A stretch of 64,000 nt of DNA from Parcubacteria group bacterium Gr01-1014_31. GTDB taxonomy: Bacteria > Patescibacteriota > Patescibacteriia > Buchananbacterales > GWA2-38-13. The notes beneath the pieces are model-generated. The model had not been told where the DNA came from, did not search any database, and saw only the letters and a list, made by a program, of their open reading frames with translations. Where the stretch lies: assembly GCA_007376135.1 (NCBI GenBank), contig VMFR01000001.1:9259-73258 (forward strand), given 5' to 3'. Positions 1 to 15,390 of the stretch are shown here, one piece after another (position 1 is the stretch's first letter; every line of letters begins with the position of its first letter). The translations under genes were made by a program, and so were the position numbers.

Positions 1-26
1 GTGAGCTGCGGGTAAATTACGATGAT

Positions 27-482
27 GTGCAGAACTCCATGAATATCATGGGGCAGTACGACCCTGACTACGGCACGATCAAGCTCCCGCTCACGCCCGA
101 GCTGCAGCAGCGGTACATCGCGATCGGCAGCCGGATCGCGTGCGAATACTGCTGCGGCGCGAAGATGATCGTCTTTCCCAACGGCAAGGCGGCCTGCGGC
201 TGCGCCCACTCGCAGGCAATGCGCGGTCTGATCGTCTACCTGTTGACCAAGCATCCCGCTGAATTCAGCGATGACCGTATCCTGCAGGAATTGGCGCGGT
301 GGAAAGCGCGTTTCTTCCCCAAGCAGATGATCGCCAAGGTCGCAGATCAGCGCGCGTCGGGCCAGTACACGCCTGATGTGGCGGCCCTTCTCTTGAACCA
401 GCCGACCGGGGGGTCGCGCAGCACTGCCGCACCGCTGCCATCCAGCCTGCAAAATCTGCCGAACATGGTCGGCGGTTGCTAA
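27..482 (+). CDS. Cys-rich protein (CxxCC...CGC) with C-terminal tail APLPSSLQNLPNMVGGC; possibly 5'-partial (frame open to window edge)
   Basis: ORF track; GTG at 27 or ATG at 39/48; frame has no stop back to nt 3; shares its last ~18 codons with the next ORF. Confidence 0.45.
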   Translation: MQNSMNIMGQYDPDYGTIKLPLTPELQQRYIAIGSRIACEYCCGAKMIVFPNGKAACGCAHSQAMRGLIVYLLTKHPAEFSDDRILQELARWKARFFPKQMIAKVADQRASGQYTPDVAALLLNQPTGGSRSTAAPLPSSLQNLPNMVGGC

Positions 483-533
483 TACCGTGCCGCGCCCAGC
501 AGATTCATCCTTCATTCTTCAATCCCTACTCGT

Positions 534-812
534 ATGGAAAATTGCACGCACCACGACCATAGCCATACTGTTCCGCACGCGGCGAGTGCTCCCGCCGCGC
601 CCGCATCAGAAACGCGCCGGCTTACCATCGCGCTGGTCGCCGTCACGGCGTTCCTCGGCATCCAAACCGTGCAGCTGGTTTCGCTGCGCCGCAGCCTGGC
701 GGCCGCACCGTCCGCTGCTGCTCCGGTCGCGGCGGCCGCGGCTGCCCCACAGGGTGCCGCTCCGCTGCCGTCCAGCCTGCAAAATCTGCCGAACATGGTC
801 GGCGGCTGCTAG
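534..812 (+). CDS. small membrane protein: His-rich N-terminus (CTHHDHSH), one TM helix, Ala/Pro linker, same C-terminal tail PLPSSLQNLPNMVGGC
   Basis: ORF track; ATG at 534; C-terminus encoded by a near-identical ~55-nt repeat of 422-482. Confidence 0.4.
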   Translation: MENCTHHDHSHTVPHAASAPAAPASETRRLTIALVAVTAFLGIQTVQLVSLRRSLAAAPSAAAPVAAAAAAPQGAAPLPSSLQNLPNMVGGC

Positions 813-815
813 GGT

Positions 816-1637
816 ATGCCGCGTTTCATGCGACCGACGTTCGCCGTTGCGATAGTGGCGGTGGCTGTTGCGGCGCTCAACGTCGCGGGCACCGCGCAGC
901 TATTCGGGCAGGTCAAATCCTCGCCAACTCCCGTGCCGCCTCCGCGTTTACAGGTGACCGTGGTCACCGATGCCGCCTGCGCCGAGTGCGCCTCGCTTGA
1001 ACCAGTGGTTGCCCAACTGGCGAAGTTCAATATTGTCCTGGAGCGGGCAACGTTTGAACGCAACAGCACGGAGGGGGCAGCCTTGCTGACGCGGTACGGC
1101 ATCGTTACCGTACCGACGTTGGTGGTGAGCGGCGATGTGGACGCCCTACCGGAACTGGCATCGTTTTGGCAGAAGCTGGGGCGGCGCGCGGCGGACGCCG
1201 TCATTCTTGATCCGCCCATTCCGCCCTACCGCGACGTGCAGAGCGGACAGATCCGCGGCCGGGTGGCCGTGACCCTGGTGGGCGATGCCGCTTGCACCAC
1301 CTGCTACGACGCGAATGAGCACCTGACCATTCTGGCACGCTTCGGCATCAAGGATGAAAACCCGCGCCGGGTGGACATCCGTTCCACGGACGGCCAAACA
1401 TTGCGCCGTGATTACGGCATTACCATGGTCCCGACGTTCGTGCTCACCGGCGAGGTTGGCGTTTACGAAGGGCTGTCGAACATTTGGGTACAAGTGGGTA
1501 CCACCGAAAAGGATGGCGCCTACGTTTTCCGGCAGGGGGTAGCGAGCATGGGCACGTACCGTGATCTGGCGACGGGCAAAATTATTTTGCCCACCCCGAC
1601 TCCCACACCCTCGCCGGTCCAAGGAGTCCAGCCATGA
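816..1637 (+). CDS. membrane-anchored protein-disulfide oxidoreductase-like protein with two thioredoxin-fold units (CAEC...VPT; CTTC...VPT)
   Basis: N-terminal hydrophobic anchor; two CxxC motifs each followed ~40 aa later by a cis-Pro-like VPT(L/F)V motif; starts 3 nt after previous stop. Confidence 0.6.
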   Translation: MPRFMRPTFAVAIVAVAVAALNVAGTAQLFGQVKSSPTPVPPPRLQVTVVTDAACAECASLEPVVAQLAKFNIVLERATFERNSTEGAALLTRYGIVTVPTLVVSGDVDALPELASFWQKLGRRAADAVILDPPIPPYRDVQSGQIRGRVAVTLVGDAACTTCYDANEHLTILARFGIKDENPRRVDIRSTDGQTLRRDYGITMVPTFVLTGEVGVYEGLSNIWVQVGTTEKDGAYVFRQGVASMGTYRDLATGKIILPTPTPTPSPVQGVQP

Positions 1638-2566
1638 ACGCCAATTCCGTCCGGGGACTGGCGAGGTCGCCCTGGTCGGCCGGGGTGGCAGGGATGCTTG
1701 GCATGGCCGGGCTGTACGCAACGATCGTTACCCTCCTGAGCCGGTCCGCGGGGCATACATGGGAGCAGTTCCTGCTCTACCGCTGGTGGATGCTGGCGAT
1801 GTTCCTCGCGTTTGGCATCCAGGTTGGTATCGTTCGGCTGCTGGCCCTGCGTCGTCACAACGCGATTCGCCAGGCGGCGGTGGCCGGCGGTACCGGTTCG
1901 GTGGCCATGGCGGCATGCTGCGCGCACCACGCCCTCGACTTTCTGCCGTTCATCGGGGGAACCTTGGTGGCGGGATTTGTCGTGCGCGCCCAGGCGCCGC
2001 TGCTGGCGGTGGGCGTGGCGTCGAACCTCGCCGGGATAGCGGTACTGTTGGGTCGGCTGTGGGGGGTTCCGTGGCGGCGATGGTTGGCGGTCCGCCGTTC
2101 TCGCACCGGTGGTCTTCGATCGCTGGCGTCCTTGGCGTACGCCGGCGGCGGTGCGTTGGCGGTCGTTATTGCCGCCGCGAGTTTCGGATTGTTGGGAATC
2201 AGCGCGGGGCCAGTGGAAAGCCCGACAGCACGACTCGCGGACATCCAGCGGCCGACGCGAAACGATGCGCAAGCCTCCATCGAGGTGACCGTCAGCCCGC
2301 TGCAGCTGGACCAACTCGGCGTCAGGTTTGCCGTCGGTCTCGAAACCCACACGGTCGAGCTGGACTACGATTTCGCGGCCCTCAGCAGTCTGACCGTCGA
2401 CCGTCGCACCTATGCCGCGCAGCGCTGGGAAGGCGGGCGCGGCGGGCATCACTTGTCCGGCATCTTGGTGTTCCCGCCGTTGCCCCCGCAGGCGCGCACC
2501 GTGGTACTGACCATGAACGGCGTCGGCGGCGTGGTCCGAAAATTCGACTGGTCGGTCACGCCGTAA
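1634..2566 (+). CDS. polytopic membrane protein with vicinal CC-HH motif (AMAACCAHH) in a TM helix plus ~120-aa C-terminal soluble domain
   Basis: ATGA start/stop overlap with upstream gene (translational coupling); 4-5 predicted TM segments; no family recognised. Confidence 0.5.
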   Translation: MNANSVRGLARSPWSAGVAGMLGMAGLYATIVTLLSRSAGHTWEQFLLYRWWMLAMFLAFGIQVGIVRLLALRRHNAIRQAAVAGGTGSVAMAACCAHHALDFLPFIGGTLVAGFVVRAQAPLLAVGVASNLAGIAVLLGRLWGVPWRRWLAVRRSRTGGLRSLASLAYAGGGALAVVIAAASFGLLGISAGPVESPTARLADIQRPTRNDAQASIEVTVSPLQLDQLGVRFAVGLETHTVELDYDFAALSSLTVDRRTYAAQRWEGGRGGHHLSGILVFPPLPPQARTVVLTMNGVGGVVRKFDWSVTP

Positions 2567-2639
2567 CGTGAGTTCACAAGCGGCGGGCAGGTGCTATACT
2601 GAAGCAACCTTCCCGCCGCTTTGCGGTTTTCTCTTAGTT

Positions 2640-4049
2640 ATGCGCCGTATTCTCATCGTCAATCCGAATCTCTACTCATCGCGCGCCACCGTGATGCGCG
2701 GGCGGCACCGGCCGCCGCTGGACTTGGCCTACATTGCCGCTCTCCTGCGCAACGATTTTGAAGTGCGGCTCGTGGACGCGCGCGTCGACAATCTTGATGT
2801 GTGCCAGATGTACGCGGAGGTGGCGGCCTATTCTCCCGAGGTGCTCATTACGACGACCACGCCCGTGGACCGCTGGGAGTGCCCGCAGTCCTATTTGGAG
2901 TCATTCTTCAGCTGGCTTGGCGATGTTGCCAACCTGCCCACCAAGCCCGTGATCATCGTCACGGGCACGCACGGCACCACGCAGCCCGACTGGCTGCTGC
3001 GCCGTTGCCCGTCCATCGATTTCTTGGTGCGCGGCGAACCTGAACGGACGTGTGAGGCGTTGGTGCGCGCAATTGCGGCCGGCGGCCATCCGTCCGTCAT
3101 CGCCGGAGTGTCGTACCGCCAGGAGGAAAAGATCCTGCACAATCAGGCAGCACCGCGCATTCTGGACCTGGACGCCCTGCCCTTGCCGGCCTACGACCTG
3201 CTGCCGATGGGCAAGTACCGCTACACGTTCGGCGACATCCCGCAACCGTTCTCCATCGTGCTGGCCACCCGCGGGTGCCCGTACCGCTGCACCTTCTGCT
3301 GCCGGGTCATGATGGAGAACGCCTACGTTACGCGCAAACCCCAGCAGGTGTACGATGAATTGAAGTACCTGCGCGAGCGGTTCGGCGTGCGCGGGATTTT
3401 TTTCCAGGACTGGGAGTTCACCATCAACAAGTTTTTCGTCAATGCGCTGATGGACCTGCTGCTCGCCAAGCCGTTGGGCATCACCTGGGGTTGTAACGCG
3501 CGCGCCAATGATTTCCAACAACCCCAACTGTTCGAGAAGATGCAGCGGGCCGGCTTGGTGCGGGTGAACATCGGCTTTGAGTCCGGTTCTCCCGAGGTCC
3601 TGGAGGCGGTCAACAAGAAGATCACGGTCGACGACCTGGCGCGGGCCATAGAAGTGACCCGGCGGCTGAAGCTGCACTTGGGAATGTACGCGCTGCTCAA
3701 CGCGCCCGGGGAAACGGCAAAAACCATCCGCGAAACCATGGCGTTCCTCAAGCGCCAGGGGATCAGTTCGATGAATTTCAACCTGGTCGTGCCGTACTTC
3801 GGCACCGCGGTGCACGAGCAGCTGCGCGAGCAGCTCGGCCCCGAAGCGGCCGAGCACCTGACCTGGGATACCATCGAAGAGTACGCCGGCCGCACCCGCA
3901 CGCAGTTGCCGCCTTGGCTGGCGCGCCTCTACCAGCGTCACACGAAATACCGCCTCTCCAGCGGGCCGATCTACTGGCTGCGCCCTGCGGTCTGGGCCGA
4001 GGTCGGGAGAAAGGTCGTGGGCCGCATGCATCCGCATGAGGGAAAGTAG
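2640..4049 (+). CDS. B12-binding-domain radical SAM protein
   Basis: N-terminal Rossmann-like B12-binding region (RILIVNPN...LDLAYIAALLR); CxxxCxxC cluster motif GCPYRCTFC; start moved to internal ATG 2640. Confidence 0.8.
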   Translation: MRRILIVNPNLYSSRATVMRGRHRPPLDLAYIAALLRNDFEVRLVDARVDNLDVCQMYAEVAAYSPEVLITTTTPVDRWECPQSYLESFFSWLGDVANLPTKPVIIVTGTHGTTQPDWLLRRCPSIDFLVRGEPERTCEALVRAIAAGGHPSVIAGVSYRQEEKILHNQAAPRILDLDALPLPAYDLLPMGKYRYTFGDIPQPFSIVLATRGCPYRCTFCCRVMMENAYVTRKPQQVYDELKYLRERFGVRGIFFQDWEFTINKFFVNALMDLLLAKPLGITWGCNARANDFQQPQLFEKMQRAGLVRVNIGFESGSPEVLEAVNKKITVDDLARAIEVTRRLKLHLGMYALLNAPGETAKTIRETMAFLKRQGISSMNFNLVVPYFGTAVHEQLREQLGPEAAEHLTWDTIEEYAGRTRTQLPPWLARLYQRHTKYRLSSGPIYWLRPAVWAEVGRKVVGRMHPHEGK

Positions 4050-4058
4050 CGTAGCGTT

Positions 4059-4086
4059 CAGCCGCCCTTTGCCGGGCGGTTTTTGT
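4059..4086 (+). terminator. rho-independent terminator after radical SAM gene
   Basis: stem CCGCCC / GGGCGG with 6-nt loop followed by TTTTT. Confidence 0.6.
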
Positions 4087-4106
4087 TTGGGCGTTCCGTC
4101 GGTTTG

Positions 4107-4115
4107 TGGTATAAT
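4107..4115 (+). promoter_or_regulatory. extended -10 element TGgTATAAT upstream of receiver gene
   Basis: TGnTATAAT match ~37 nt upstream of ATG 4152; upstream TTGTTT hexamer is spaced 21 nt (non-canonical). Confidence 0.4.
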
Positions 4116-4151
4116 TATGCCCTAGTATCAACGCGCGCGGGCGCGATTCTT

Positions 4152-4562
4152 ATGGCAACCAAGAGCACGAAGAAGCCGACAACCACGGCGGCGGGCGGCA
4201 AGGCCGTTCTCATCATCGAGGATGATGAATTTTTGGCAAAAATGATGGCCCGGATGCTGGAAGAGGCCGGGCTGCGGTGTACGCTGGCGGGGAACGGCAA
4301 AGAAGGCTTGCGGAAAGCGCAGGCGGATGTCCCGCAGCTCATCATCCTGGACATCATCCTGCCTGATTTGGACGGGTTTGCGATTTTGAGCAAATTGAAA
4401 GCCGCCGCCGCTACCAAAGCGGTTCCGGTCATCATCATTTCCAACCTTGGCCAGGAGGAAGACGTGCAGCAGGGTCTGCGGTTGGGCGCCAAGGACTACA
4501 TCGTAAAGAGCGACCTCAGCCTGGATGCGGTGGTGGCTAAGGTGATGAAGCAACTGAAATAA
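4152..4562 (+). CDS. stand-alone response-regulator receiver domain (CheY-like), likely pilus-associated
   Basis: phospho-acceptor Asp in IILDIILPDLDG, DYIVKSD motif; no output domain; immediately upstream of pilB/pilC. Confidence 0.8.
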   Translation: MATKSTKKPTTTAAGGKAVLIIEDDEFLAKMMARMLEEAGLRCTLAGNGKEGLRKAQADVPQLIILDIILPDLDGFAILSKLKAAAATKAVPVIIISNLGQEEDVQQGLRLGAKDYIVKSDLSLDAVVAKVMKQLK

Positions 4563-4565
4563 CAT

Positions 4566-4654
4566 TTGACTGTTGACCTTTGACCATTGACCGCGTTGAT
4601 GTTGGTCAAATTTCGCCGCTTGTCAAATGTTGCCGGTCAATGGTTAATGGTCAG
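4566..4654. promoter_or_regulatory. array of TTGAC(C) heptads (four tandem 7-bp units) followed by inverted GGTCAA copies, upstream of pilB
   Basis: TTGACTG TTGACCT TTGACCA TTGACCG at 4566-4593, then GGTCAA/GTCAA at 4604, 4622, 4635, 4642(GGTTAA), 4649(GGTCAG). Confidence 0.45.
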
Positions 4655-4655
4655 T

Positions 4656-6350
4656 ATGCACGTATCGGATGAACAACTGAAAGAGGCGCTGGTTTCGCGG
4701 CAGCTGTTGCCCGCGAGCCAGGTGAACGCTGCGTTCGCGAAGGCGGAGGCGCAGCATCTGTCTTTGCGCGAGGTGCTGTTGAACGATGATCTGATCGCCG
4801 ACGAGCACGTGGGCCGACTGATCGCCGACCTGCTGGGGGTCCCGTTCATTAACCTCCGCAAAGTGCAAATACCGGAGGCGGTGCTGCGGTTGATTCCGGA
4901 AGTGGTGGCCAAGAGCCGCCAGGTGATCGCGGTCAAACGCGATCGCGAGGGGTTGACGGTCGCGATGGCGGATCCCGACGACATGGAGGCGGTGGCGCTG
5001 GTGCAGAAGGCGACCGGCGAGCTGGTCACGCCGGCCTTGGCCACCCCGCGCGACCTCGGCGGCGCGTTGTCGCGGTACCGGAAGGGCTTGCAAGAGGATT
5101 TTTCCGCGCTGCTGACGGCGGCCGCGTCGGAAGCGGAAGCTGCCACCAAAGAGCAGGCAGTGGAACAGGCGGAAGCGACGGTAGTGCGCATTGTCGAACA
5201 GCTGCTCGCGTACGCCTATGAGAATAAAGCCTCCGACCTGCATCTGGAGCCGCAGCGCGACGCTCTGGTGGTGCGTTTCCGCATCGATGGCGTCCTGCAC
5301 GAGGTGGTCGCTCTGCCGAAAGCCATCGAACCGCAGATCGTCTCCCGCATCAAGGTATTGTCCAAATTGCGCACCGACGAGCATGCGGCGGCCCAAGACG
5401 GTAAATTTCGGTTCAGCGTTCCGGAAGAGCAGGTGGATGTCCGCGTTTCCATCCTGCCGGTGACCGCCGGTGAAAAAGTGGTCTTGCGGCTGTTATCGTC
5501 CAAGCAGCGGGAATTTTCCCTCGAGGATCTTGGCTTTGGGGCGGGCGATCTGAAAAAAGTGAAACTGGCGTTCAACAAACCGTACGGCATGATCCTGTCC
5601 ACCGGCCCGACGGGTTGTGGCAAGACCACGACGCTCTACGCCATCCTGCAGATCCTCAACAGCCGCGAGATCAATATTTCCACGATCGAAGACCCGGTCG
5701 AGTATGAGATCGCGGGCGTGAATCAGATCCAGGTCAACGCCAAGACGAATCTGACGTTCGCGGCCGGCCTGCGCTCCATCCTGCGCCAGGACCCCGACGT
5801 CATCATGGTCGGGGAGATCCGCGACGAGGAGGCGGCCGGCATCGCGGTTAACGCCGCCATGACCGGCCATCTGGTGCTCTCGACGCTCCACACCAATGAT
5901 GCCGCGACTTCGCTGCCGCGGCTGTTGGACATGCAGGTGGAACCGTTCCTCATCTCCAGCACTGTGAATGTCATTGTGGCGCAGCGTCTGGTGCGGCGCA
6001 TCTGTAGCCAGTGTTTGGTGAGCTACCAGGCCAAGCGCAAGGAGCTTGGGGCGACGCTTTCGCCGGCGCTGGTCACCCGCCATTTCGGAAACCGCGCGTC
6101 GGTGCGGCTGTACAAGGGCAAGGGGTGCCAGGTGTGCGGCGGTACCGGGTACCACGGCCGGGTCGGCATTTTCGAAGTTCTGGAGGTGACGGAGGCGGTA
6201 CGGCGGCTGATCATGGAGCGCGCCAACGCGGATATCATCAAGGCGGAAGCGGTCAAGGAGGGGATGACGACGATGTTGGATGATGGCCTGGCGAAAGCGG
6301 TGCAGGGGGCGACGACCATTGAGGAAGTCCTGCGGGCGACCCGCGAGTGA
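4656..6350 (+). CDS. pilB: type IV pilus assembly ATPase PilB (GspE family)
   Basis: GspII_E N-domain, Walker A GPTGCGKTTT, His/Asp boxes, tetracysteine CSQC...CQVC; start chosen at ATG 4656 (track start 4587 lies in the repeat array). Confidence 0.9.
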   Translation: MHVSDEQLKEALVSRQLLPASQVNAAFAKAEAQHLSLREVLLNDDLIADEHVGRLIADLLGVPFINLRKVQIPEAVLRLIPEVVAKSRQVIAVKRDREGLTVAMADPDDMEAVALVQKATGELVTPALATPRDLGGALSRYRKGLQEDFSALLTAAASEAEAATKEQAVEQAEATVVRIVEQLLAYAYENKASDLHLEPQRDALVVRFRIDGVLHEVVALPKAIEPQIVSRIKVLSKLRTDEHAAAQDGKFRFSVPEEQVDVRVSILPVTAGEKVVLRLLSSKQREFSLEDLGFGAGDLKKVKLAFNKPYGMILSTGPTGCGKTTTLYAILQILNSREINISTIEDPVEYEIAGVNQIQVNAKTNLTFAAGLRSILRQDPDVIMVGEIRDEEAAGIAVNAAMTGHLVLSTLHTNDAATSLPRLLDMQVEPFLISSTVNVIVAQRLVRRICSQCLVSYQAKRKELGATLSPALVTRHFGNRASVRLYKGKGCQVCGGTGYHGRVGIFEVLEVTEAVRRLIMERANADIIKAEAVKEGMTTMLDDGLAKAVQGATTIEEVLRATRE

Positions 6351-6385
6351 TCTTCCGGAGAAAATCAAGGTTAAAAACACAAGGC

Positions 6386-7594
6386 ATGCAATTCGCGTAT
6401 TCGGCAGCCACGGCGGACGGGAAGATGACCCGCGGCGTTGTGGCCGCAGCCAACCAGCGGGCCGCGATCGCGCTGCTTGAACGGCAGCAGCTGGTTGTCG
6501 TGAAGCTGGAGCGCCGTCGTGACGGCAAGGCTCAGGCGCTCTACCGCGTGCCGCTGTTGCAGCGGATGCTTTTGGCGCAGCACCTGTCGACGCTCCTAAG
6601 AGCCGGCGTCAGCTTGCTGGAAGGCCTGCGAGTGGTGCAGGAAGAGGCCCGCTCACGGCGATTACGCAAGCTGTTGGAACGCGTGCGGGTCAAAGTATCG
6701 TCCGGCACCACCTTTGCCGCCGCCCTCGAATCCCAGGGCGGGGCCTTTGACTCCCTATTTACCAGTTTGGTGCGCGTCGGCGAGTCCTCCGGCACGCTGG
6801 AGGAGAATCTTTCCTACCTCGCGGATGAATTGGAGAAACGGATGGCGCTCCACACCAAAGTGCGCTCGGCGTTGACGTATCCGGCGGTGGTCGTCGGCGT
6901 GACGGGCGTGCTGGGCGCGGTCCTCGCGTTCTTCGTATTGCCCAAGATTGTTCCGCTGTTCACCTCGCTCAAGGTGAAACTCCCGCTCTCGACGGAGATC
7001 CTGTTGAGGGTCGCCGGGTTCTCCCGCGACCACGGTATGCTCTCCCTGGCGCTCATCGCCGGCGCCATCATTGCTTTCCGTTTGCTGACCTTGCGGGGAC
7101 CGTTGCGGCGGCAATGGCATTGGTTCTTGCTGCGTTTGCCGGTGGTCGGCCGCATTACGCGAAGTTTGAACCTGGCCAACGCCTGCCGGACCCTGGGGAC
7201 GCTGTTGAAGAGCGGCGTGCCGTTGCTGGAGGCGCTTGATATCACCGCCGGCACACTGGGGAATACGGCGTACCGCGAGGAATTTTCCGCTCTGCGGGAT
7301 GCGGCCGGCACCGGCACCAGCCTCGCTGCAAGCATGGCGCAGCCCTCGCGGCGGAAGCTGTTCCCGCCCTTGACGCTGTCGCTGGTCCGGGTGGGCGAAT
7401 CCAGCGGGAAACTGGACGAGAGTTTGCTCTACCTGAACCGTTTCTACGAACGCGAGGTGGATAATTTAATGAAAGATCTGACGGTCATCCTGGAGCCGAT
7501 GCTGTTGGTGTTCATCGGACTGGTGGTGGCGTTCGTCGCCGGGGCCATCATTACGCCTATCTACCAGATCTCCGGCAGTCTGCGAGTGAGATGA
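6386..7594 (+). CDS. pilC: type IV pilus inner-membrane platform protein PilC (GspF family)
   Basis: two GspF repeats, 3 TM regions; start at ATG 6386 preceded by AAGG. Confidence 0.85.
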   Translation: MQFAYSAATADGKMTRGVVAAANQRAAIALLERQQLVVVKLERRRDGKAQALYRVPLLQRMLLAQHLSTLLRAGVSLLEGLRVVQEEARSRRLRKLLERVRVKVSSGTTFAAALESQGGAFDSLFTSLVRVGESSGTLEENLSYLADELEKRMALHTKVRSALTYPAVVVGVTGVLGAVLAFFVLPKIVPLFTSLKVKLPLSTEILLRVAGFSRDHGMLSLALIAGAIIAFRLLTLRGPLRRQWHWFLLRLPVVGRITRSLNLANACRTLGTLLKSGVPLLEALDITAGTLGNTAYREEFSALRDAAGTGTSLAASMAQPSRRKLFPPLTLSLVRVGESSGKLDESLLYLNRFYEREVDNLMKDLTVILEPMLLVFIGLVVAFVAGAIITPIYQISGSLRVR

Positions 7595-7597
7595 TCT

Positions 7598-9646
7598 ATG
7601 AGGTTTCACTGGCCGCGGCGCAGCGTGGTGGGCATCGACCTTTCTGACCGGTCGATCGAGGCGTTGCAGCTGAAGCGGTCGCTGGGGAAGCCCGCACTGG
7701 CTGCCTACAGCCGGGTGCAGTTGCCGCCGGGTGTCGTTGAGGACGGGCGGATCCTACAGCCGGCCGCGCTGGTGGAACGGGTGCGCCAGCTGCTGCAGAA
7801 AGCGCGTCCGGAGCCCATTAAGGAGCATCTGTGTGTTATCGCCCTGCCGGAATCCCAGGTCTATTCGCATGTGTTTTCGTTGCCCGCGGCGTTCCAGGCC
7901 GAACAGGTGCGGCGGGCAATCCTCCTGGAGGCGGAGCACTTCATGCCCATCCCACTCAGGGAAAGTTATTTGGATTTTCGTCCTATCGGCGTCCGCGGCG
8001 AGTATCAGGAGGTGGCGTTTGCGGCGACCCGGCGCGGCCTGGTGCATACGTACCTTGAGGTTTTCAAGTCCGCCGGGCTCCAGCCTATCGCCTTCGAGCC
8101 GGAATCCGTCAGTCTGGGCCGGTCGCTGGTGCGCCGGACCTTAGGCGACGGGTCGGCGGCTACTCTTATTGCGGATGTGGGTATGCGTACGACCAATGTC
8201 CACCTCGTGCGCCAGGGTGCGGTCATCGGCAGTTTGACGATTCCGCGGGCCGGCGGTCACTTCACTGAGGCGGTCGCCGCGGCCATGAAGATTTCCCCGG
8301 AGGAGGCCGAGACCCGCAAACTGCAGGTCGGGTTCGACGAGCGGCGGGGCGATGCCGTCCTGGTGTCCGCGCTCTCGTCGGCAGCGGTGCCGATCATCGC
8401 CGAGGTCAAGCGGTTCGTGGCGTACGCGGTCGAACATCGCGGCGTAACCGTACGCCAGGTGGTGTTGGCCGGCGGGTCCGCCTTGCTGCCGGGGTTCCCG
8501 GAATTTTTGTCGGCCCAGTTGAGTTTACCCGTCAGCGTCGGGGAGCCGTTGGCGCGCCTTTGGCAGGGCCGCGTGAAGCTGCCCGAACGCCAGGGCGTGC
8601 TGTATGGCAATGTCATCGGGCTGGCGCTGCGCGGGCTGCACCGCGACCCGGTTGCGGCGGGACCAAATCTGCTGATTCAGGCGCAGGACCGCATCCGCAG
8701 CGAACAACTGCAGCATTTTTTGACCGTACCGAAATTCGATCGGCGGCTGTGGGGAATGGTCGCCGCACTGGTATGCTCCCTGCTGGTGCTGGGGGGGCTG
8801 TTGTGGTACCGATCGGCAACGCCGGCGCCAAACCCGCGCTACGTGGTGGAATTTTCTCCGTTGGACTGGGCCAAGAGTAAGGCGCCGCAGACGACGGAGC
8901 TGGCTATTTCCTTTGCGTCCGCGGAGGCTGTTCCCGCCAATGCGCTTCCCGCGCGATTCCTGGAAGGAGTATTCACCGCCACGGACGTTTTCGCGGCTAC
9001 GGCGTCCGCCACCGTTGCCACCACGGACACGCTGGTGCGATTGGTGAACACGACCGATCGGGACCAGCCACTGGTGTCCAATACCCGGCTGGAGGCAAAT
9101 GACGGAACCACCCTGCGTCTTACCTCCGGGGTCATCGTGCCCGCGGACGGTACTTTGACCATTGCCGTTCCCCTCCCGCCGGACGGTGGAGTGAGCGGGC
9201 GTTTGCGACTGCCGGGGTTGTCGGTTGATGCCCAGCGGTCCATCTACGCCGAAGTCATCCTCCCCGCCGCCGTCATCGGGGCAGGCGATGTCGCCGCGGC
9301 CCGCGAGCGGCTGTTTGCCTCAGCGCGGCAGTTGGCAACCGATGCCTTCGTTGTTCAACAGGAAGCTGAGGAGTACCTGCTGCCGATATTCCCCCCGCTT
9401 GAGGGGGAGGCGCTGACGACGTCGTTGCCAGTCGGAGCATTCGCCGTCGAATTTTCGGCCACGCTGCGCCAACCCTTCGGAGGCATCGTGGTGTTCAAGA
9501 ATGACCTGGTATCGGCGATCACCGCCGCGTTTGGCCCCCTGGAGCAGCCGCTCCAGTCCGTCAGTTTCACGCTTGGCAAGCTGGATTTGGCGGAGCGCCG
9601 GATTTCTGTTATAATAACCACAGCCAGCCCGCCTGTGGAAAAGTAA
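7598..9646 (+). CDS. PilM-like actin-fold ATPase fused to PilN-like TM segment and a ~280-aa C-terminal extracytoplasmic domain
   Basis: N-terminal VVGIDLSDRSIEAL... PilM/FtsA-like fold; single TM (LWGMVAALVCSLLVLGGLLWY) near residue 390. Confidence 0.7.
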   Translation: MRFHWPRRSVVGIDLSDRSIEALQLKRSLGKPALAAYSRVQLPPGVVEDGRILQPAALVERVRQLLQKARPEPIKEHLCVIALPESQVYSHVFSLPAAFQAEQVRRAILLEAEHFMPIPLRESYLDFRPIGVRGEYQEVAFAATRRGLVHTYLEVFKSAGLQPIAFEPESVSLGRSLVRRTLGDGSAATLIADVGMRTTNVHLVRQGAVIGSLTIPRAGGHFTEAVAAAMKISPEEAETRKLQVGFDERRGDAVLVSALSSAAVPIIAEVKRFVAYAVEHRGVTVRQVVLAGGSALLPGFPEFLSAQLSLPVSVGEPLARLWQGRVKLPERQGVLYGNVIGLALRGLHRDPVAAGPNLLIQAQDRIRSEQLQHFLTVPKFDRRLWGMVAALVCSLLVLGGLLWYRSATPAPNPRYVVEFSPLDWAKSKAPQTTELAISFASAEAVPANALPARFLEGVFTATDVFAATASATVATTDTLVRLVNTTDRDQPLVSNTRLEANDGTTLRLTSGVIVPADGTLTIAVPLPPDGGVSGRLRLPGLSVDAQRSIYAEVILPAAVIGAGDVAAARERLFASARQLATDAFVVQQEAEEYLLPIFPPLEGEALTTSLPVGAFAVEFSATLRQPFGGIVVFKNDLVSAITAAFGPLEQPLQSVSFTLGKLDLAERRISVIITTASPPVEK

Positions 9647-10402: not shown

Positions 10403-10424
10403 TTTGACCGTTGTACTACCGGGT

Positions 10425-10937
10425 ATGTCTGCCAAAGTCGTGTTCATCGTTGCCCAGCGTGATTTTCGTGATGAGGAGTTGTTGCAGACGCGCGAGGTAC
10501 TGGAGCGTTTCGGCGTGCAAACGTATGTCGCCGCGGATTCCCAAGAGCCGGCGCACGGAAAATTCGGTTCGCTGGTCTTGCCCAGTCTGACCATCCAGGG
10601 GGTCTCGGCGCGGCACTTCGACGGGATCATTTTCGTCGGCGGTCCGGGCGCGCGCGGCCTGTTCGAGAAGCGGACCGTGTTGCGGCGCGCCCAGGAGTTT
10701 GCTCAGGCCAACAAGGTGGTCGCGGCTATCTGCAGCGCACCGACCATCCTGGCTAACGCCGGCCTGCTGATGGGGAAGCGGGCAACCGCGTTCCCCACCG
10801 AGGAGACGGTGCTACGCGATCACGGCGCGGAGTATACCGGCCTGCCGGTCGAAGCGGACGGGAACCTCATCACGGCCAAGGATTCCACCTACGCGCGCGA
10901 TTTTGCCGAGCGCATTGCCTGGGAGCTAGGACGGTAG
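10425..10937 (+). CDS. DJ-1/PfpI family protein (class I glutamine amidotransferase-like)
   Basis: IIFVGGPGA and nucleophile-elbow AAICSAP motifs; start at internal ATG 10425 (MSAKVVFIV). Confidence 0.75.
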   Translation: MSAKVVFIVAQRDFRDEELLQTREVLERFGVQTYVAADSQEPAHGKFGSLVLPSLTIQGVSARHFDGIIFVGGPGARGLFEKRTVLRRAQEFAQANKVVAAICSAPTILANAGLLMGKRATAFPTEETVLRDHGAEYTGLPVEADGNLITAKDSTYARDFAERIAWELGR

Positions 10938-10965
10938 CCCCTGCTCCAGGCGGTCACGAGCACCC

Positions 10966-10995
10966 TTGTTGCATTGGTACCCGTCAATATATAAT
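10966..10995 (+). promoter_or_regulatory. sigma70-type promoter TTGTTG-N18-TATAAT for sodA
   Basis: hexamers at 10966-10971 and 10990-10995, ~30 nt upstream of ATG 11025. Confidence 0.5.
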
Positions 10996-11024
10996 TCAAA
11001 CGCACGTAATTCATCTGCAAACCT

Positions 11025-11636
11025 ATGCCATACACACTGCCCAAATTGGCCTACGCTCTTGATGCGCTGGAGCCGCATCTTGACGCGCGGACGATGGAGA
11101 TCCACCACGGCAAACACCACCAGGCGTACGTCGACAATCTCAATAAGGCCCTGGAGTCCTATCCCGAACTCCAGCGGTTGACCCCGGAAGAGCTGGTGGC
11201 GCAGCTTTCTACGGTGCCGGAAGCCGCGCGCACCGCCGTCCGCAACAATGCCGGGGGACACCTCAACCACAGTTGGTACTGGGAGTGGATGGCGCCGAAA
11301 GCCGCAGGAAAGCCTGACGGAAAATTGGCGAAAGCGTTCGAACAAGAGTTTGGCGGGTTCTCCGGGTTCCAGGAGCAGTTTACCAAGGCCGGCATGACCC
11401 GTTTCGGCAGCGGTTGGGCGTGGCTCGTCATCAAAGAGGGAAAACTTTCGGTTCTCTCGACGGCCAACCAGGACAATCCGTTGACCGACGGCTTTACCCC
11501 GCTGCTGGGCTGCGACGTGTGGGAGCACGCCTACTATTTGAAGTATCAGAACCGCCGGGTTGATTATTTAAAGGCGTGGTGGAGCGTGGTGAACTGGGGA
11601 AACGTCGAAACGCGCTTCGCGAAAACGCAGCGGTAA
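11025..11636 (+). CDS. sodA: superoxide dismutase, Mn-type signature
   Basis: [20 protein letters not shown] (GG = Mn-type), [19 protein letters not shown]; close to E. coli SodA. Confidence 0.9.
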
Positions 11637-11660
11637 CCGGCGAGGTTGGATTTTTTTGCT

Positions 11661-11900
11661 ATGCCCGCCGTCACCATCTATTCCACCCCGACCTGTCCGT
11701 ACTGCAAGATGGCAAAAGCCTACCTGCAGAAAAAGAACGTCCCGTTCACCGACGTGGATGTGTCCGTCGATGCGGCGAAGGCCGAAGAAATGATCGAAAA
11801 ATCAGGGCAACTGGGCGTGCCGGTGTTGGATATCGGCGGCCGTATCGTTATCGGGTTCGATCAGCCGCAGATCGAAGCGGCCCTGGTTGAAATGAAATAA
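11661..11900 (+). CDS. glutaredoxin-family protein (CPYC)
   Basis: VTIYSTPTCPYCKMAK... GVPVLDIGG; start at ATG 11661. Confidence 0.8.
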   Translation: MPAVTIYSTPTCPYCKMAKAYLQKKNVPFTDVDVSVDAAKAEEMIEKSGQLGVPVLDIGGRIVIGFDQPQIEAALVEMK

Positions 11901-11916
11901 ACGTTGCGTTCGCGGT

Positions 11917-12480
11917 ATGCGCCGGAATTATTCCCTTCTTTTTTTCGCCGCGGCATTCGTTACCTTGGCGAGTGTTGGATGCACGCGCACGGCATTGACG
12001 CCGAACGTTGCGCCGCCTGATGCATCCGCACCCGCGGTGCCGTCCAACGGGGAACGCGTTCCCGAAGCGGCGGGCAGCCCGCTCGAGCAGCCCCAGCGGG
12101 CCACCGCGGATACGCCCGTGCCTCCCGCGGTATCCAGCTATCGGCCGTTCACGAAAGATGCCTACGAACAGGCCAAGGCCGACGGACGGCCGATCCTGCT
12201 GTATTTTTACGCCAACTGGTGCCCGTTGTGCGCCGACCAGGAACCGCAGGTGGCCGAACTTTTCCGCAGTCCGGCGATGGCCGATTGGGGGGTGGCGGCG
12301 TTCCGCGTCAACTACAACGACAGCGACAGTGACAGTGATGAGCGGGACTTGGCGGCGGAACTCGGCGTGAACTACCAGCATACCTTTTTTACATTCGACC
12401 GGAGCGGCAAGCAGGTGTGGCGGGCGACCGGCACGCAAACGCCCGCGCAGCTGCGTTCTCGTCTGGAAGCGATCCGGTAA
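11917..12480 (+). CDS. secreted/lipoprotein thioredoxin-like protein (TlpA-like, WCPLC)
   Basis: N-terminal signal ...LASVGC; thioredoxin fold ILLYFYANWCPLC. Confidence 0.7.
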   Translation: MRRNYSLLFFAAAFVTLASVGCTRTALTPNVAPPDASAPAVPSNGERVPEAAGSPLEQPQRATADTPVPPAVSSYRPFTKDAYEQAKADGRPILLYFYANWCPLCADQEPQVAELFRSPAMADWGVAAFRVNYNDSDSDSDERDLAAELGVNYQHTFFTFDRSGKQVWRATGTQTPAQLRSRLEAIR

Positions 12481-12494
12481 CGGCTTGGTTTGGT

Positions 12495-13331
12495 ATGGAG
12501 ACGCTCACTCTGCCATCGTTGCTCGCGCTTTCCGCATTTTCCGGTGCGTTGACCATCGCCGCGCCCTGTATCCTATCGCTGTTGCCCGTGATGCTGGGTT
12601 CAGCCTTGGGGCAGCACCGTCTGCGGCCGCTCTTCATCGTGCTGGGGCTGGTGTCCAGCTTCACCGCCTTCGGCCTGGCGTTCGCGACCTTCACGCGATT
12701 TTTCGGCTTGAACCGAGTGCAATTCCGCCAGATCGCCGTCTGGCTGATCTTTTTTTTCGGGTTGGCGCTGCTGTTCCCGCGCCAGTATGAGCGGATCTCC
12801 GCCGGACTGAAATCCTTGCGTTCCCGCCTTATGCTCCGAATGCGCGGCGGCAATCTTCCCGTGCCGACTTTGCACCGGCCAAGGGCCGGTTTCCGCGGCG
12901 CGTTCCTGCTCGGCGCCTCCATGGGTTTGGCCTGGGTGCCGTGTGCCGGACCGGTGCTGGGTGTGATCTTCACGATCGCTGCTTCGCAGGAAGCCTACGG
13001 AACTGCGGCGCTGCTGTTTGCAGCATACGCAGTCGGTGCCGGCGTGCCGTTGTTGGTGATCGGGTACGGCGGCAATTGGATCGCGGCCAAGACCAGATTT
13101 CTGGCCGGGAAGACCGAACTGGTGCGCCGCATCGCCGGGGCGCTGCTGGCAACCATGGGCCTGCTGATGATCACCGAATTGGACCGCCGGCTGGAAATAT
13201 CCGCTTTCGGCCTGTTCCCGAATACGGTAGGTATCGAAGAGCGCCTGCTGGAAGAGCAGATGGATGAGTTGCCCATGGGGGAACTCGTGGACCCGGGCCA
13301 GAAAATGCCGGTGCTGCCGCGTCAGCCATGA
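12495..13331 (+). CDS. ccdA: cytochrome c-type biogenesis / thiol-disulfide transporter CcdA (DsbD family)
   Basis: two conserved TM Cys motifs APCILSLLP and VPCAGPVL; 6 TM; start at ATG 12495. Confidence 0.75.
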   Translation: METLTLPSLLALSAFSGALTIAAPCILSLLPVMLGSALGQHRLRPLFIVLGLVSSFTAFGLAFATFTRFFGLNRVQFRQIAVWLIFFFGLALLFPRQYERISAGLKSLRSRLMLRMRGGNLPVPTLHRPRAGFRGAFLLGASMGLAWVPCAGPVLGVIFTIAASQEAYGTAALLFAAYAVGAGVPLLVIGYGGNWIAAKTRFLAGKTELVRRIAGALLATMGLLMITELDRRLEISAFGLFPNTVGIEERLLEEQMDELPMGELVDPGQKMPVLPRQP

Positions 13332-14470
13332 AGTCTATGCATCTTCGCGGGTGGTTGAACATCCTGATTAGTATCGCGGTCATCGTCGCGGTCGTGACGG
13401 TCGGCTACCGGCTGATCTATGCGTCCAATCCGCTCAAGCAAGCGGGAGCATTGTTCTCCAGCCTTTTTGACCGTTCGTCCATGCTCCATTCCAGCTTGCG
13501 GCGCGAAGCCGTGCCCGCCCCCGAGTTGGCCGGTATTCAGCAGTGGTTCAACACCGCCGGCAATACGCCCTTGCGCATCTCCGACCTGCGCGGAAAGGTC
13601 GTCATCGTTGATTTTTGGACCTATAGCTGCATCAACTGCATCCGGACCATGCCGTATATCACGGCCTGGGACAAAAAATACCGCGATCGCGGTTTGGTGA
13701 TTATTGGCGTGCATACTCCGGAATTCGAATTCGAAAAGGTCCCCGCGAACGTCGCGGGGAAGATCAAGGAGTACGGCATTGAATACCCGGTGGCGCTGGA
13801 TAGCCGCTACGATACCTGGAACGCCTACGGTAACCAATTCTGGCCGGCCAAGTACTTCATCGACCATGAGGGTAACATCGTCTGGCGCCATTTCGGGGAA
13901 GGCGCGTACGAGGAATCGGAAGCAAAGATCCAGGAGCTGTTGCGCAATGCCGGTTTGCTCGATGATGTCCCGCCGACGGCAGCCGTCAGCCCGAATGTCG
14001 ATTTTTCCCTGATCAAGACGCCGGAACTGTATTTCGGCTATCGCCGGCTGCTGTCGCCGTCCCAGCGGCGGCATTTCGCGCCTGACCAGCTTCGCCCGGG
14101 CGAGGTCAACCGGTACGCCGCGCCGCCAACGTTACAGGAGAACGAATTTACCCTGGTCGGTGATTGGCTGATGGAGGATGAGTACGCCGAGCTGAGATCG
14201 GCGCAGGGGGCGATCCTTATCCGTTACTTCGCCACCAAGGCGAATCTGGTGCTGGAGGCGACCCCTGCTGCCAGGGCGAGCGTGCTCGTGGATGGCGAGC
14301 CGCTCCGGGGCGCGGGTCGCGGGAGCGATGTGCGCACAGACGGAACCGTGGCCATCGGCGAACCAAGACTGTATAATCTGACCGTTGCCGGGGACGACCT
14401 GGGCTGGCATACTCTGGAGGTGCGGTTCGACCGGCCCGGCATCCGTGCGTTCTCGTTCACCTTCGGCTGA
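13328..14470 (+). CDS. membrane-anchored TlpA/ResA-like thiol-disulfide oxidoreductase (redoxin, DipZ C-terminal-like) with ~140-aa C-terminal extension
   Basis: ATGA overlap with ccdA stop; TM anchor; VVIVDFWTYSCINC...YFIDHEGNIV. Confidence 0.75.
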   Translation: MKSMHLRGWLNILISIAVIVAVVTVGYRLIYASNPLKQAGALFSSLFDRSSMLHSSLRREAVPAPELAGIQQWFNTAGNTPLRISDLRGKVVIVDFWTYSCINCIRTMPYITAWDKKYRDRGLVIIGVHTPEFEFEKVPANVAGKIKEYGIEYPVALDSRYDTWNAYGNQFWPAKYFIDHEGNIVWRHFGEGAYEESEAKIQELLRNAGLLDDVPPTAAVSPNVDFSLIKTPELYFGYRRLLSPSQRRHFAPDQLRPGEVNRYAAPPTLQENEFTLVGDWLMEDEYAELRSAQGAILIRYFATKANLVLEATPAARASVLVDGEPLRGAGRGSDVRTDGTVAIGEPRLYNLTVAGDDLGWHTLEVRFDRPGIRAFSFTFG

Positions 14471-14571: not shown

Positions 14572-15390
14572 ATGCGAAAATATTTCGCGTTCATGGCGCT
14601 TGGCGCCGCATTGATCGCGGCCGCTTGCACTCGTCAAGTGCCGCCGCCCCAGGCCGGGGGTAACGACAATGACCAGGCCGCCGTCAGCCCGACGCCCGAT
14701 GTTAGGGCGGCAAAGACGGTCGTCCAGATCCTGAACTTGCGCAGCAAAGCGTTGGCCGGCCAACCGTTGGAGGTGACCTGGCAGGTCAAACCGGAGGATG
14801 GCGCGACCGGTACCATCAGCCATACCGCGTTCCACTACGATGTTATCTCCCATCCGGGCGTGTTGGGCCAGGACGTAACTCCCGCCGCCGCCGGCTACAA
14901 GGAGTTGACGCCGGATTTTGCCCAGGGCGAGTTCCAGGTACCGCGGTCGTTCTCGGCGAAATTGACGCCGCAAGCCGGGAAATTGTACGTTCGGGCGCAC
15001 ACGATCATCGAGGGAAAGCAGTACTGGACCGACGAGGCCGTGGTGGAGGTGGTATCCGACCCGGCAATGATGGGCGAGGGCGGAGACCAGGACGATGAAA
15101 CGGTGAGCGGCGAGGTGAAAACCCTGACCATGACCGCAGAGACTTGGGAATTCGAGCCGTCGACCATCCGGGTGAAGAAAGGCGACCGCGTCAAATTGGT
15201 GGTTACCAGCAAGGACGTTACGCATGGATTGATACTGCCGCAGTACAAGATCGACGAGAAGCTCGAGCCGGGCAAGACGGTGACCGTCGAATTCACCGCC
15301 GATACCGCGGGTGAATTCCCGTTCTGGTGCAATGTACCGTGCGGGGAAGGCCACCGCGAGATGCGCGGTACGCTGATTGTGGAAGAGTAA
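14572..15390 (+). CDS. lipoprotein with C-terminal cupredoxin domain carrying a complete CuA-type site (H-x34-C-x3-C-x3-H-x2-M)
   Basis: signal ...LIAAAC; VTHG...FWCNVPCGEGHREM matches the CuA ligand spacing of COX2/NosZ; no oxidase subunit I nearby. Confidence 0.65.
   Translation: MRKYFAFMALGAALIAAACTRQVPPPQAGGNDNDQAAVSPTPDVRAAKTVVQILNLRSKALAGQPLEVTWQVKPEDGATGTISHTAFHYDVISHPGVLGQDVTPAAAGYKELTPDFAQGEFQVPRSFSAKLTPQAGKLYVRAHTIIEGKQYWTDEAVVEVVSDPAMMGEGGDQDDETVSGEVKTLTMTAETWEFEPSTIRVKKGDRVKLVVTSKDVTHGLILPQYKIDEKLEPGKTVTVEFTADTAGEFPFWCNVPCGEGHREMRGTLIVEE

Follow-up and report, generated by a model that had tools for sequence, protein, structure and literature searches.

Two membrane proteins with a shared terminal-cysteine arm in a putative thiol-relay and soft-metal module of candidate phyla radiation bacteria and DPANN archaea

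Several bacteria keep the copper-binding cysteines of envelope proteins reduced by means of a DsbD/CcdA-type conduit and anchored thioredoxin-fold proteins. The ScsABCD system of Salmonella and the TlpA-ScoI/CoxB system of Bradyrhizobium follow this logic, and both are linked to copper tolerance or delivery. Elsewhere, a cysteine is carried on a flexible C-terminal extension. In DsrC of dissimilatory sulfite reductase and in the C-terminal Cys pair of mercuric reductase MerA, the cysteine stands at or next to the last residue and delivers a sulfur species or a soft metal to a catalytic partner. Here, we describe a group of genes, O1 to O4, located at the beginning of a 64,000-nucleotide stretch of DNA (the window) from Parcubacteria group bacterium Gr01-1014_31. 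Two of the encoded membrane proteins, O1 and O2, end in the same cysteine-terminated tail, and related gene groups occur in bacteria of the candidate phyla radiation (CPR) and in archaea of the DPANN group (Diapherotrites, Parvarchaeota, Aenigmarchaeota, Nanoarchaeota, and Nanohaloarchaeota). We tentatively propose that O1-O4 form an extracytoplasmic module, equipped with terminal-cysteine arms, for thiol relay and the handling of a soft metal (copper), an inferred function whose chance of being correct we place somewhat short of even.

The setting of O1-O4 follows the same logic as the Scs and TlpA systems. However, the Scs, Sco, and PCuAC proteins were not homologous to O1, O2, or either half of O4 (O4N and O4C) in the searches made, and the Scs and TlpA systems are not known to have terminal-cysteine arm proteins. 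The arms of DsrC and MerA are likewise C-terminal and carry Cys, and no homology to them is claimed. They are cytoplasmic and belong to unrelated folds, whereas O1 and O2 would present one and the same arm on two membrane proteins outside the cell. The literature searched contained nothing relevant on the MVGGC motif or on copper-thioredoxin clusters of CPR and DPANN. The module genes in the window are as follows:

1..482, + strand: 3' part of O1 (last ~160 codons, frame of position 3), a predicted membrane-anchored extracytoplasmic Cys-rich protein
426..479, + strand: C-terminal tail of O1, AAPLPSSLQNLPNMVGGC, in which the final Cys is the last residue
534..812, + strand: O2, a 92-aa predicted bitopic protein with its 18-aa tail at 756-809
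816..1637, + strand: O3, a predicted N-terminally anchored double thioredoxin with the motifs CAEC and CTTC
1634..2566, + strand: O4, a fusion of two modules, O4N (~1634-2062) and O4C (~2126-2566)

The 18-residue tails of O1 and O2 in the window are identical, as a first-pass annotation of this DNA had noticed. Over their final 61 nt, the two genes agree at 54 positions, and three synonymous differences fall within the tail codons. Identity over all 18 residues is also found at two related loci, L006 and L092 (L numbers denote the loci and contigs compared here). In each of three related genomes, the two tail copies are separated by 2-4 synonymous differences while the peptide is unchanged. 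A recent duplication or an assembly artefact was thus ruled out as the cause of the identical tails in these three genomes, and the pattern argues for selection on the tail peptide, beyond gene conversion alone. Of 74 non-redundant pairs of O1 and O2, 71 agree in the last five residues. In all nine cases of a switch from Met to Gln at position -5, both proteins changed in concert; these cases come from multiple lineages of bacteria and archaea (Fisher p 9e-11, without phylogenetic correction). In the tail residues farther upstream, O1 and O2 of one genome also resemble each other more than those of different genomes do (0.34 vs 0.24), a likeness reached by none of 2000 permutations. The simplest reading of this co-variation is that both tails serve one common partner.

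The predicted structure of O1 consists of a helical core with a putatively CcmH-like fold followed by a disordered tail. The AlphaFold2 confidence score (predicted local distance difference test, pLDDT) is 80-93 in the core and below 40 at residues 227-252, and P..VGGC is invariant among 20 aligned O1 homologues. Because of the low pLDDT and the invariant Pro and Gly, the tail is predicted to be a flexible arm. O2 comprises a His-rich N-terminus (MENCTHHDHSH), a single transmembrane (TM) helix with a conserved Gln at its end, an Ala/Pro linker, and the tail. His/Cys-rich N-termini are found in a subset of O2 proteins, and those from CPR carry a conserved cytoplasmic helix (ELExIKxEI). In both O1 and O2, Lys and Arg are commoner before the TM helix than after it, so both proteins are likely to be oriented N-in/C-out, with tails that are predicted to be extracytoplasmic.

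Polar residues are conserved at the outer end of the TM helix, which for O2 is encoded at 600-680 of the window: NQ occurs in 62 of 76 O1 proteins, and 55 of 74 O2 proteins have Q..[QE]. These residues hint at helix-helix pairing between O1 and O2 in the membrane. C-terminal sorting signals (LPXTG, PEP-CTERM, PGF-CTERM, GlyGly-CTERM) were considered for the tails and ruled out, since the proteins end in ...VGGC-COOH and no hydrophobic or TM segment follows the motif.

CcmH, the thiol-oxidoreductase of System I cytochrome c maturation (PDB 2HL7), may resemble O1 in fold and has no sequence-level relationship to it. None of 20 O1-family members matched CcmH, even at E values up to 10. When the O1 profile was aligned to a segment of E. 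coli CcmH with hhalign, the motifs of the two proteins were paired with a probability of 0.6%, which is not significant and gives no more than a hint of the motif register. O1 has the invariant motifs CE[YF]CCG and ACGCAHSQAMR. The C-E-[YF]-C of the former follows the helix at residues 125-135, and its flanks differ from the LRC of the CcmH redox motif LRCxxC, which stands in the loop joining helices 1 and 2. Features of O1 that CcmH lacks are an additional N-terminal subdomain, a hairpin insertion bearing the invariant CGCAHSQAMR, a fifth Cys, and the ...MVGGC arm. Neither cytochrome c machinery nor a CXXCH substrate is evident here. A search of PDB sequences with the O1-family profile returned only a spurious L9 match (E 0.54), and a Foldseek search of the PDB with the O1 model gave no match with E below 2. 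Longer proteins that contain O1 were inspected for fusions; there was one fusion to FKBP, and the others had no additional domains.

O3 is, by its profile score and motifs, an anchored tandem thioredoxin-superfamily protein, in line with the first-pass annotation. Domain 1 scores 29.0 with Thioredoxin_3 (cut-off 24.8). The two halves, which hold CAEC and CTTC, are 36% identical (E 6e-16), and domain 2 is an internal duplicate of domain 1. Among 55 O3 homologues, 93% retain both CxxC motifs, together with a conserved Pro.

O4 bears the membrane CC-HH motif that had already been pointed out. Its first half, O4N, is a multi-helix membrane module with the motif M..CC.H......P..G....YQ. It matched no Pfam or NCBIfam family and lacks the family signature of the Mer-type transporters MerT and MerF, which have a CC pair in the first TM helix and to which we take its likeness to be an analogy of Cys pairs in the membrane only. 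O4C consists of a TM helix and a beta-sandwich, with the motifs TH.V.LD.D and W.G...GGHH..G.L.F. Its best structural match is the copper-resistance protein CrdA, the sandwich fold being generic. CopC-CopD/YcnJ and CrdA of H. pylori have no sequence similarity to O4C, and the candidate ligands of O4C (TH.V, GGHH) are unlike those of CopC and CrdA. CopD was likewise unrelated to O4N (CC.H) by Pfam search. O4N and O4C are separate neighbouring genes in nine loci and fused in one scanned locus. Their adjacency elsewhere and their fusion here support a joint function. A word-indexed search for O4 homologues gave eight proteins owing to low complexity and was replaced by hidden Markov models built from locus ORFs.

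To survey the module, one genome per species was scanned, which gave 486 loci with O1 relatives; the best 80 of the 486 were analysed. Per-gene counts cover only loci with enough flanking sequence, and neighbour clustering covers 85 loci. The bacterial loci come from Magasanik-, Buchanan-, Uhr-, Parcu-, Veblen-, and Saccharibacteria, and the archaeal loci from Micr-, Woese-, Iain-, Aenigm-, and Nanoarchaeota. An exhaustive search of 1.84 billion proteins with the O1 profile yielded 272 clusters at 50% identity, by which the O1 family is compact and lineage-restricted. Directly after O1, a small ORF that ends in [M/Q][VAQ]GGC is present at 41/43 bacterial and 27/28 archaeal loci (68/71 overall). 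Judged by this distribution, the O1-O2 pair is ancient and real. O3 is the next gene after O1-O2 at 35/39 bacterial loci; among the archaeal loci, 9/24 have it elsewhere in the locus. O4N was found at 23/32 bacterial and 13/20 archaeal loci, and O4C at 16/32 bacterial loci.

Some loci depart from this pattern or carry unexpected labels. In the Micrarchaeota loci L061, L063, L064, and L071, two tandem small tail proteins follow O1, each with the pentapeptide of O1. A locus of Veblenbacteria (L080:9456-20157) has no O2 gene and is an exception to the pairing. Many contigs (L009, L010, L012, L016, and others) are titled 'uncultured Gammaproteobacteria bacterium' despite a CPR-type cluster, which is probably a labelling artefact of the source collection of metagenome-assembled genomes.

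Five co-directional ORFs, O1 to O5, occupy positions 1-4049 of the window on the + strand, and the first-pass annotation had described their arrangement correctly. O1 and O2 are 51 nt apart (482 to 534), O2 and O3 are 3 nt apart (812 to 816), O3 and O4 overlap by ATGA at 1634-1637, and 73 nt lie between O4 and O5, a radical S-adenosylmethionine (SAM) gene (2566 to ATG 2640). The start given for O1 and the closed five-gene operon did not hold. O1 had been placed to begin at 27. Its reading frame stays open up to the window edge, where the gene is truncated, and its true start lies more than 225 nt before the window; full-length homologues have 235-252 aa and an N-terminal TM helix. The 134-kb contig L086 matches the window but for one mismatch in 14,049 nt, and window position 1 corresponds to L086 position 7362. 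The O1 start in L086 lies at 7085-7136, ~226-277 nt earlier. Upstream of O1, L086:3973-7140 encodes a 142-aa membrane protein, a DUF1573 protein with SCMCT, a 260-aa CcdA-like membrane protein (NPC, CEFPC), a 168-aa protein ending in CCGE, and a lipoprotein thioredoxin (WCSHC). The O1-O4 cluster extends upstream past the window edge, and window 1-2566 is its right-hand part.

In comparisons with the relatives L006 and L092, dN/dS was 0.06-0.07 for O1, 0.23-0.28 for O2, 0.12-0.18 for O3, and 0.28 for O4. These ratios indicate that purifying selection acts on O1-O4, the small O2 included, and that the genes are real.

The gene neighbourhood of O1 is rich in redox, regulatory, and copper-related families. 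The following were counted near O1:

M56 (BlaR1-like) peptidase: 58/85 loci
CcdA-like / vicinal-Cys membrane family: 49/85 loci
BlaI-like repressor: 48/85 loci
DUF1573 / O4: 45/85 loci
P1B ATPase bearing a heavy-metal-associated (HMA) domain: 29/85 loci
Membrane family with GC..CG: 24/85 loci
CC.E-tailed family without a Pfam match, which includes the 168-aa CCGE protein of L086: 18/85 loci
Cupredoxin: 15/85 loci
AhpC/TSA: 13/85 loci
DsbA-like: 12/85 loci
CsoR family: 11/85 loci
DUF302: 9/85 loci
HMA-membrane protein: 9/85 loci

Among 21 full-length P1B ATPases, 11 matched the Cu(I)-type signature, which we take to be CPC, NX6YNX4P, and MX2SSX5[NS]. The C-x25-H-x3-C spacing that characterises Cu-sensing CsoR is found in five CsoR-family genes, and two CsoR-family genes lie directly upstream of O1. 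At L080, a tight co-directional array begins with csoR, continues with O1, DUF1573, a CcdA-like gene, an AhpC-like gene, O4N, O4C, and a CC.E protein gene, and ends with a P1B ATPase gene. Three extracytoplasmic families have a CxC motif in common: O1 (ACGCAH), M56 in its first loop (33/39 members; e.g., LCGCGAH in L046:8680-9708), and DUF1573 (SC[GM]CT; 43/62 members, e.g., L038:12333-12818). A thiol-redox context is supported by the CxxC motifs of O3, the upstream CcdA-like and thioredoxin genes, the recurrent AhpC/TSA and DsbA-like genes, and the CxC motifs. A soft-metal (copper) context is suggested by the Cu-type P1B ATPases, CsoR, the cupredoxins, the HMA proteins, the CrdA match, and the His/Cys-rich N-termini of O2.

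The window also carries a second redox cluster at 10404-14470. It encodes DJ-1/PfpI, an Fe/Mn superoxide dismutase, a glutaredoxin, a thioredoxin-like protein, a canonical CcdA (DsbD_TM), and an AhpC/Redoxin fusion. A cupredoxin-like segment is located past this cluster at 15109-15387.

Our proposal of a thiol-relay and soft-metal module starts from the observed gene pair, the tail co-variation, the domain folds, the gene co-occurrence, and the regulator and transporter context. From these we infer the ligand (copper, or electrons only), the direction of transfer, and the partner at which the tails dock, all three being conditional. The module would work by cysteine chemistry outside the cytoplasmic membrane. 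Its core would be the N-in/C-out pair, in which O1 contributes a Cys/His/Met-rich helical ectodomain and O2 a TM helix with a linker. Each protein would end in a flexible Pro-rich arm, [M/Q]VGGC-COOH, that is the same in both within a genome. The terminal thiol, together with Met at -5, may act as a swinging arm that bears a soft metal, most likely Cu(I), or a mixed disulfide. This arm could move among the Cys cluster of O1, the two CxxC sites of O3, and the O4 pair, in which a vicinal-Cys/His membrane module is combined with a His-rich beta-sandwich. Reducing power would be supplied by the CcdA-like protein and the lipoprotein thioredoxin (WCSHC) encoded upstream, which would keep the cysteines reduced.

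Several observations weigh against this proposal. No column of the O1 domain co-varied with the M/Q switch of the tail in a search for a docking site. O1, O2, and O4 had no Pfam or NCBIfam match and no significant match to a characterised family, as the first-pass annotation had anticipated when it called the family unrecognised; several of the neighbouring families likewise matched none. The four Cys of the O1 CxxC...CxC could instead form a structural zinc site. Copper genes are present near only about a third of the loci, and genes for CopA, CsoR, M56, and BlaI are all absent within the 64-kb window.

The strongest competing explanation, itself rather unlikely in our estimate, is a general envelope thiol-redox system without a metal cargo. 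O1 and O3 would then reduce, oxidise, or isomerise the disulfides of exported proteins, such as pilins and surface proteins, or would feed envelope peroxiredoxins. The Cys arms would be electron-shuttling or resolving thiols. The recurrent CcdA-like, lipoprotein thioredoxin, AhpC/TSA, and DsbA-like genes suit this explanation, as does the putatively CcmH-like fold of O1. CxC motifs, which are known as redox-active disulfide isomerase mimics, recur in the cluster proteins. The window holds no copper genes and has a second oxidative-stress cluster at 10.4-14.5 kb. A purely redox role leaves unexplained, however, the enrichment of Cu-type ATPase, CsoR, cupredoxin, and HMA genes near O1, the conserved ligand-like His and Met residues of O1 and O4C, and the His/Cys-rich cytoplasmic N-termini of some O2 proteins.

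An improbable alternative is that O1 and O2 are accessories of signalling, that is, tethered ligands or co-sensors of the BlaR1-like M56 protease and BlaI-like repressor pair. The CxC loop of M56 would read the state of the tail thiol (free, metal-bound, or oxidised) and thereby control cleavage of the repressor. M56 (58/85) and BlaI-like (48/85) genes are the commonest neighbours after O2, usually immediately upstream and in both domains of life. Moreover, the conserved CxC of the first M56 loop resembles the CGCAH of O1, and the conserved cytoplasmic helix of CPR O2 proteins (ELExIKxEI) could fit such a role. However, the window organism and its relatives keep O1-O4 without an M56/BlaI pair within 64 kb. 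A regulator beside its own regulon is expected in any case, and adjacency alone implies no physical partnership.

The first-pass annotation had described the locus as RiPP-like (ribosomally synthesized and post-translationally modified peptide) or metal-handling. The redox and metal part of this description fits the conserved neighbourhood. The RiPP part, by which a B12-radical SAM enzyme would modify (e.g., methylate) the O1/O2 tail and the thioredoxin and membrane proteins would mature or export the product, concerns the region next to O4, which has the following features:

2573..2600, + strand: promoter-like site upstream of the radical SAM gene, within the intergenic gap (TTCACA, 16 nt, TG-TATACT)
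2640..4049, + strand: O5, a predicted class B (B12-binding) radical SAM enzyme of 469 aa with CPYRCTFC
4060..4089, + strand: intrinsic-terminator-like stem-loop with a G+C-rich stem (AGCCGCCC/GGGCGGTT), followed by a T-run

O5 has the hallmarks of a class B radical SAM enzyme, as had been claimed, with an N-terminal B12-binding domain and a Radical_SAM domain with CxxxCxxC. Both Pfam scores exceed their cut-offs (PF02310, 36.2 vs 32.1; PF04055, 92.3 vs 29.5). The gene starts at ATG 2640 rather than at GTG 2568, and the resulting 469-aa protein is 100% identical to an NCBI protein of Parcubacteria group bacterium Gr01-1014_31, which places the window in a CPR (Patescibacteria) genome. The single terminator after the gene is present, as described. 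O5 scored far under the cut-offs of all NCBIfam equivalogs, among them BchE (174.3 vs 481.35), HpnJ (163.4 vs 577.6), and the RiPP-type models ApyD (106.7 vs 750) and TIGR03975 (85.3 vs 281.85).

The locus resembles RiPP cassettes with class B radical SAM methyltransferases in that, in one clade, small ORFs sharing a peptide stand beside a B12-radical SAM gene. Only in the window, L001, and L092, which form one narrow clade, does the radical SAM gene stand beside O4 in the same orientation, and the fully identical 18-aa tails of O1 and O2 occur in exactly that clade. The weak matches of O5 to RiPP radical SAM methylases point the same way, although, as noted, their scores lie far below cut-off. 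What these ORFs share, however, is the very C-terminal end of membrane proteins, and the radical SAM gene is not conserved together with them. The first-pass annotation had made its case depend on co-localisation in other genomes; genes 1-4 do co-occur, and a radical SAM gene was found in 0 of 80 other O1 loci. L088 has a radical SAM gene (~70% identical) in the same wider synteny, flanked upstream by 142-aa, 265-aa, 169-aa, and 123-aa genes and downstream by response regulator-PilB-PilC-PilM-pilin-DJ-1-SOD, and a tblastn search of L088 found no O1-O4. The O1-O4 genes thus behave as an insertion/deletion module beside a resident radical SAM gene. Homologues of O5 with 43-50% identity in three other CPR genomes adjoin Glyco_transf_9, Polysacc_synt, epimerase, methyltransferase, and further radical SAM genes, a glycan-type context. 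The promoter-like site in the 73-nt gap has 10 of 12 matching positions and a TG extension, and L092 retains both hexamers unaltered at a protein identity of 66-86%. In addition, radical SAM enzymes are known as cytoplasmic enzymes, whereas the tails are predicted to be extracytoplasmic. O1 is a folded, TM-anchored protein of ~250 aa and O2 is bitopic, and neither is a short soluble precursor. The RiPP explanation is therefore very improbable and largely refuted by the comparative data. Most likely, the radical SAM gene is a separately promoted neighbour, probably outside the O1-O4 module, and its product probably acts on a sugar or lipid. A lineage-specific link between it and O1-O4 may exist; a general one is unsupported.

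Right after the terminator, the window (4083-9646 and ~9.7-10.2 kb) carries a type IV pilus operon. It encodes a CheY-like response regulator, a PilB/GspE ATPase, PilC, a PilM-like 682-aa protein, and a pilin (N_methyl), and the gene order is the same in L088.

Least credible of all is a haem or cytochrome c maturation-like pathway, in which the CcmH-like O1, thioredoxin, and CcdA would prepare a Cys and the terminal Cys would be the cofactor acceptor; the likely fold similarity to CcmH and the CcdA-thioredoxin-CcmH logic used by maturation Systems I and II (PMC3884852) speak for it. O1 and O2 have no CXXCH motif, O1 is not of the CcmH family by sequence, and CcmC/E/F and CcsBA are not among the 25 largest neighbour families of the 85 loci (no dedicated-model search was made). 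To our knowledge, CPR and DPANN organisms generally have neither haem synthesis nor c-type cytochromes.

Profile searches assign none of O1, O2, O4N, and O4C to an annotated family. The logic of an envelope thiol relay combined with soft-metal handling is already known, and there is a fair chance that the pair of terminal-cysteine arms represents a new mechanism. A more specific possibility, which we consider doubtful, is that O1 and O2 are an undescribed extracytoplasmic carrier, with the same co-evolving arm (...P.[M/Q]VGGC-COOH) ferrying Cu(I) or a sulfur/electron equivalent, and that this carrier is specific to CPR and DPANN and has been exchanged between them. If true, it would point to a shared envelope chemistry of ultra-small episymbionts.

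The locus also teaches that RiPP function is poorly predicted by a radical SAM neighbour seen in one genome only. CPR and DPANN account for a large part of microbial diversity, and for most of their conserved proteins no function has been assigned. The O1-O4 module is compact and present in both domains, and its invariant, co-evolving C-terminal Cys motif is experimentally tractable. If the arms carry copper or electrons, they would represent a new mechanism in envelope metal and thiol homeostasis and would provide a handle on the episymbiont surface.

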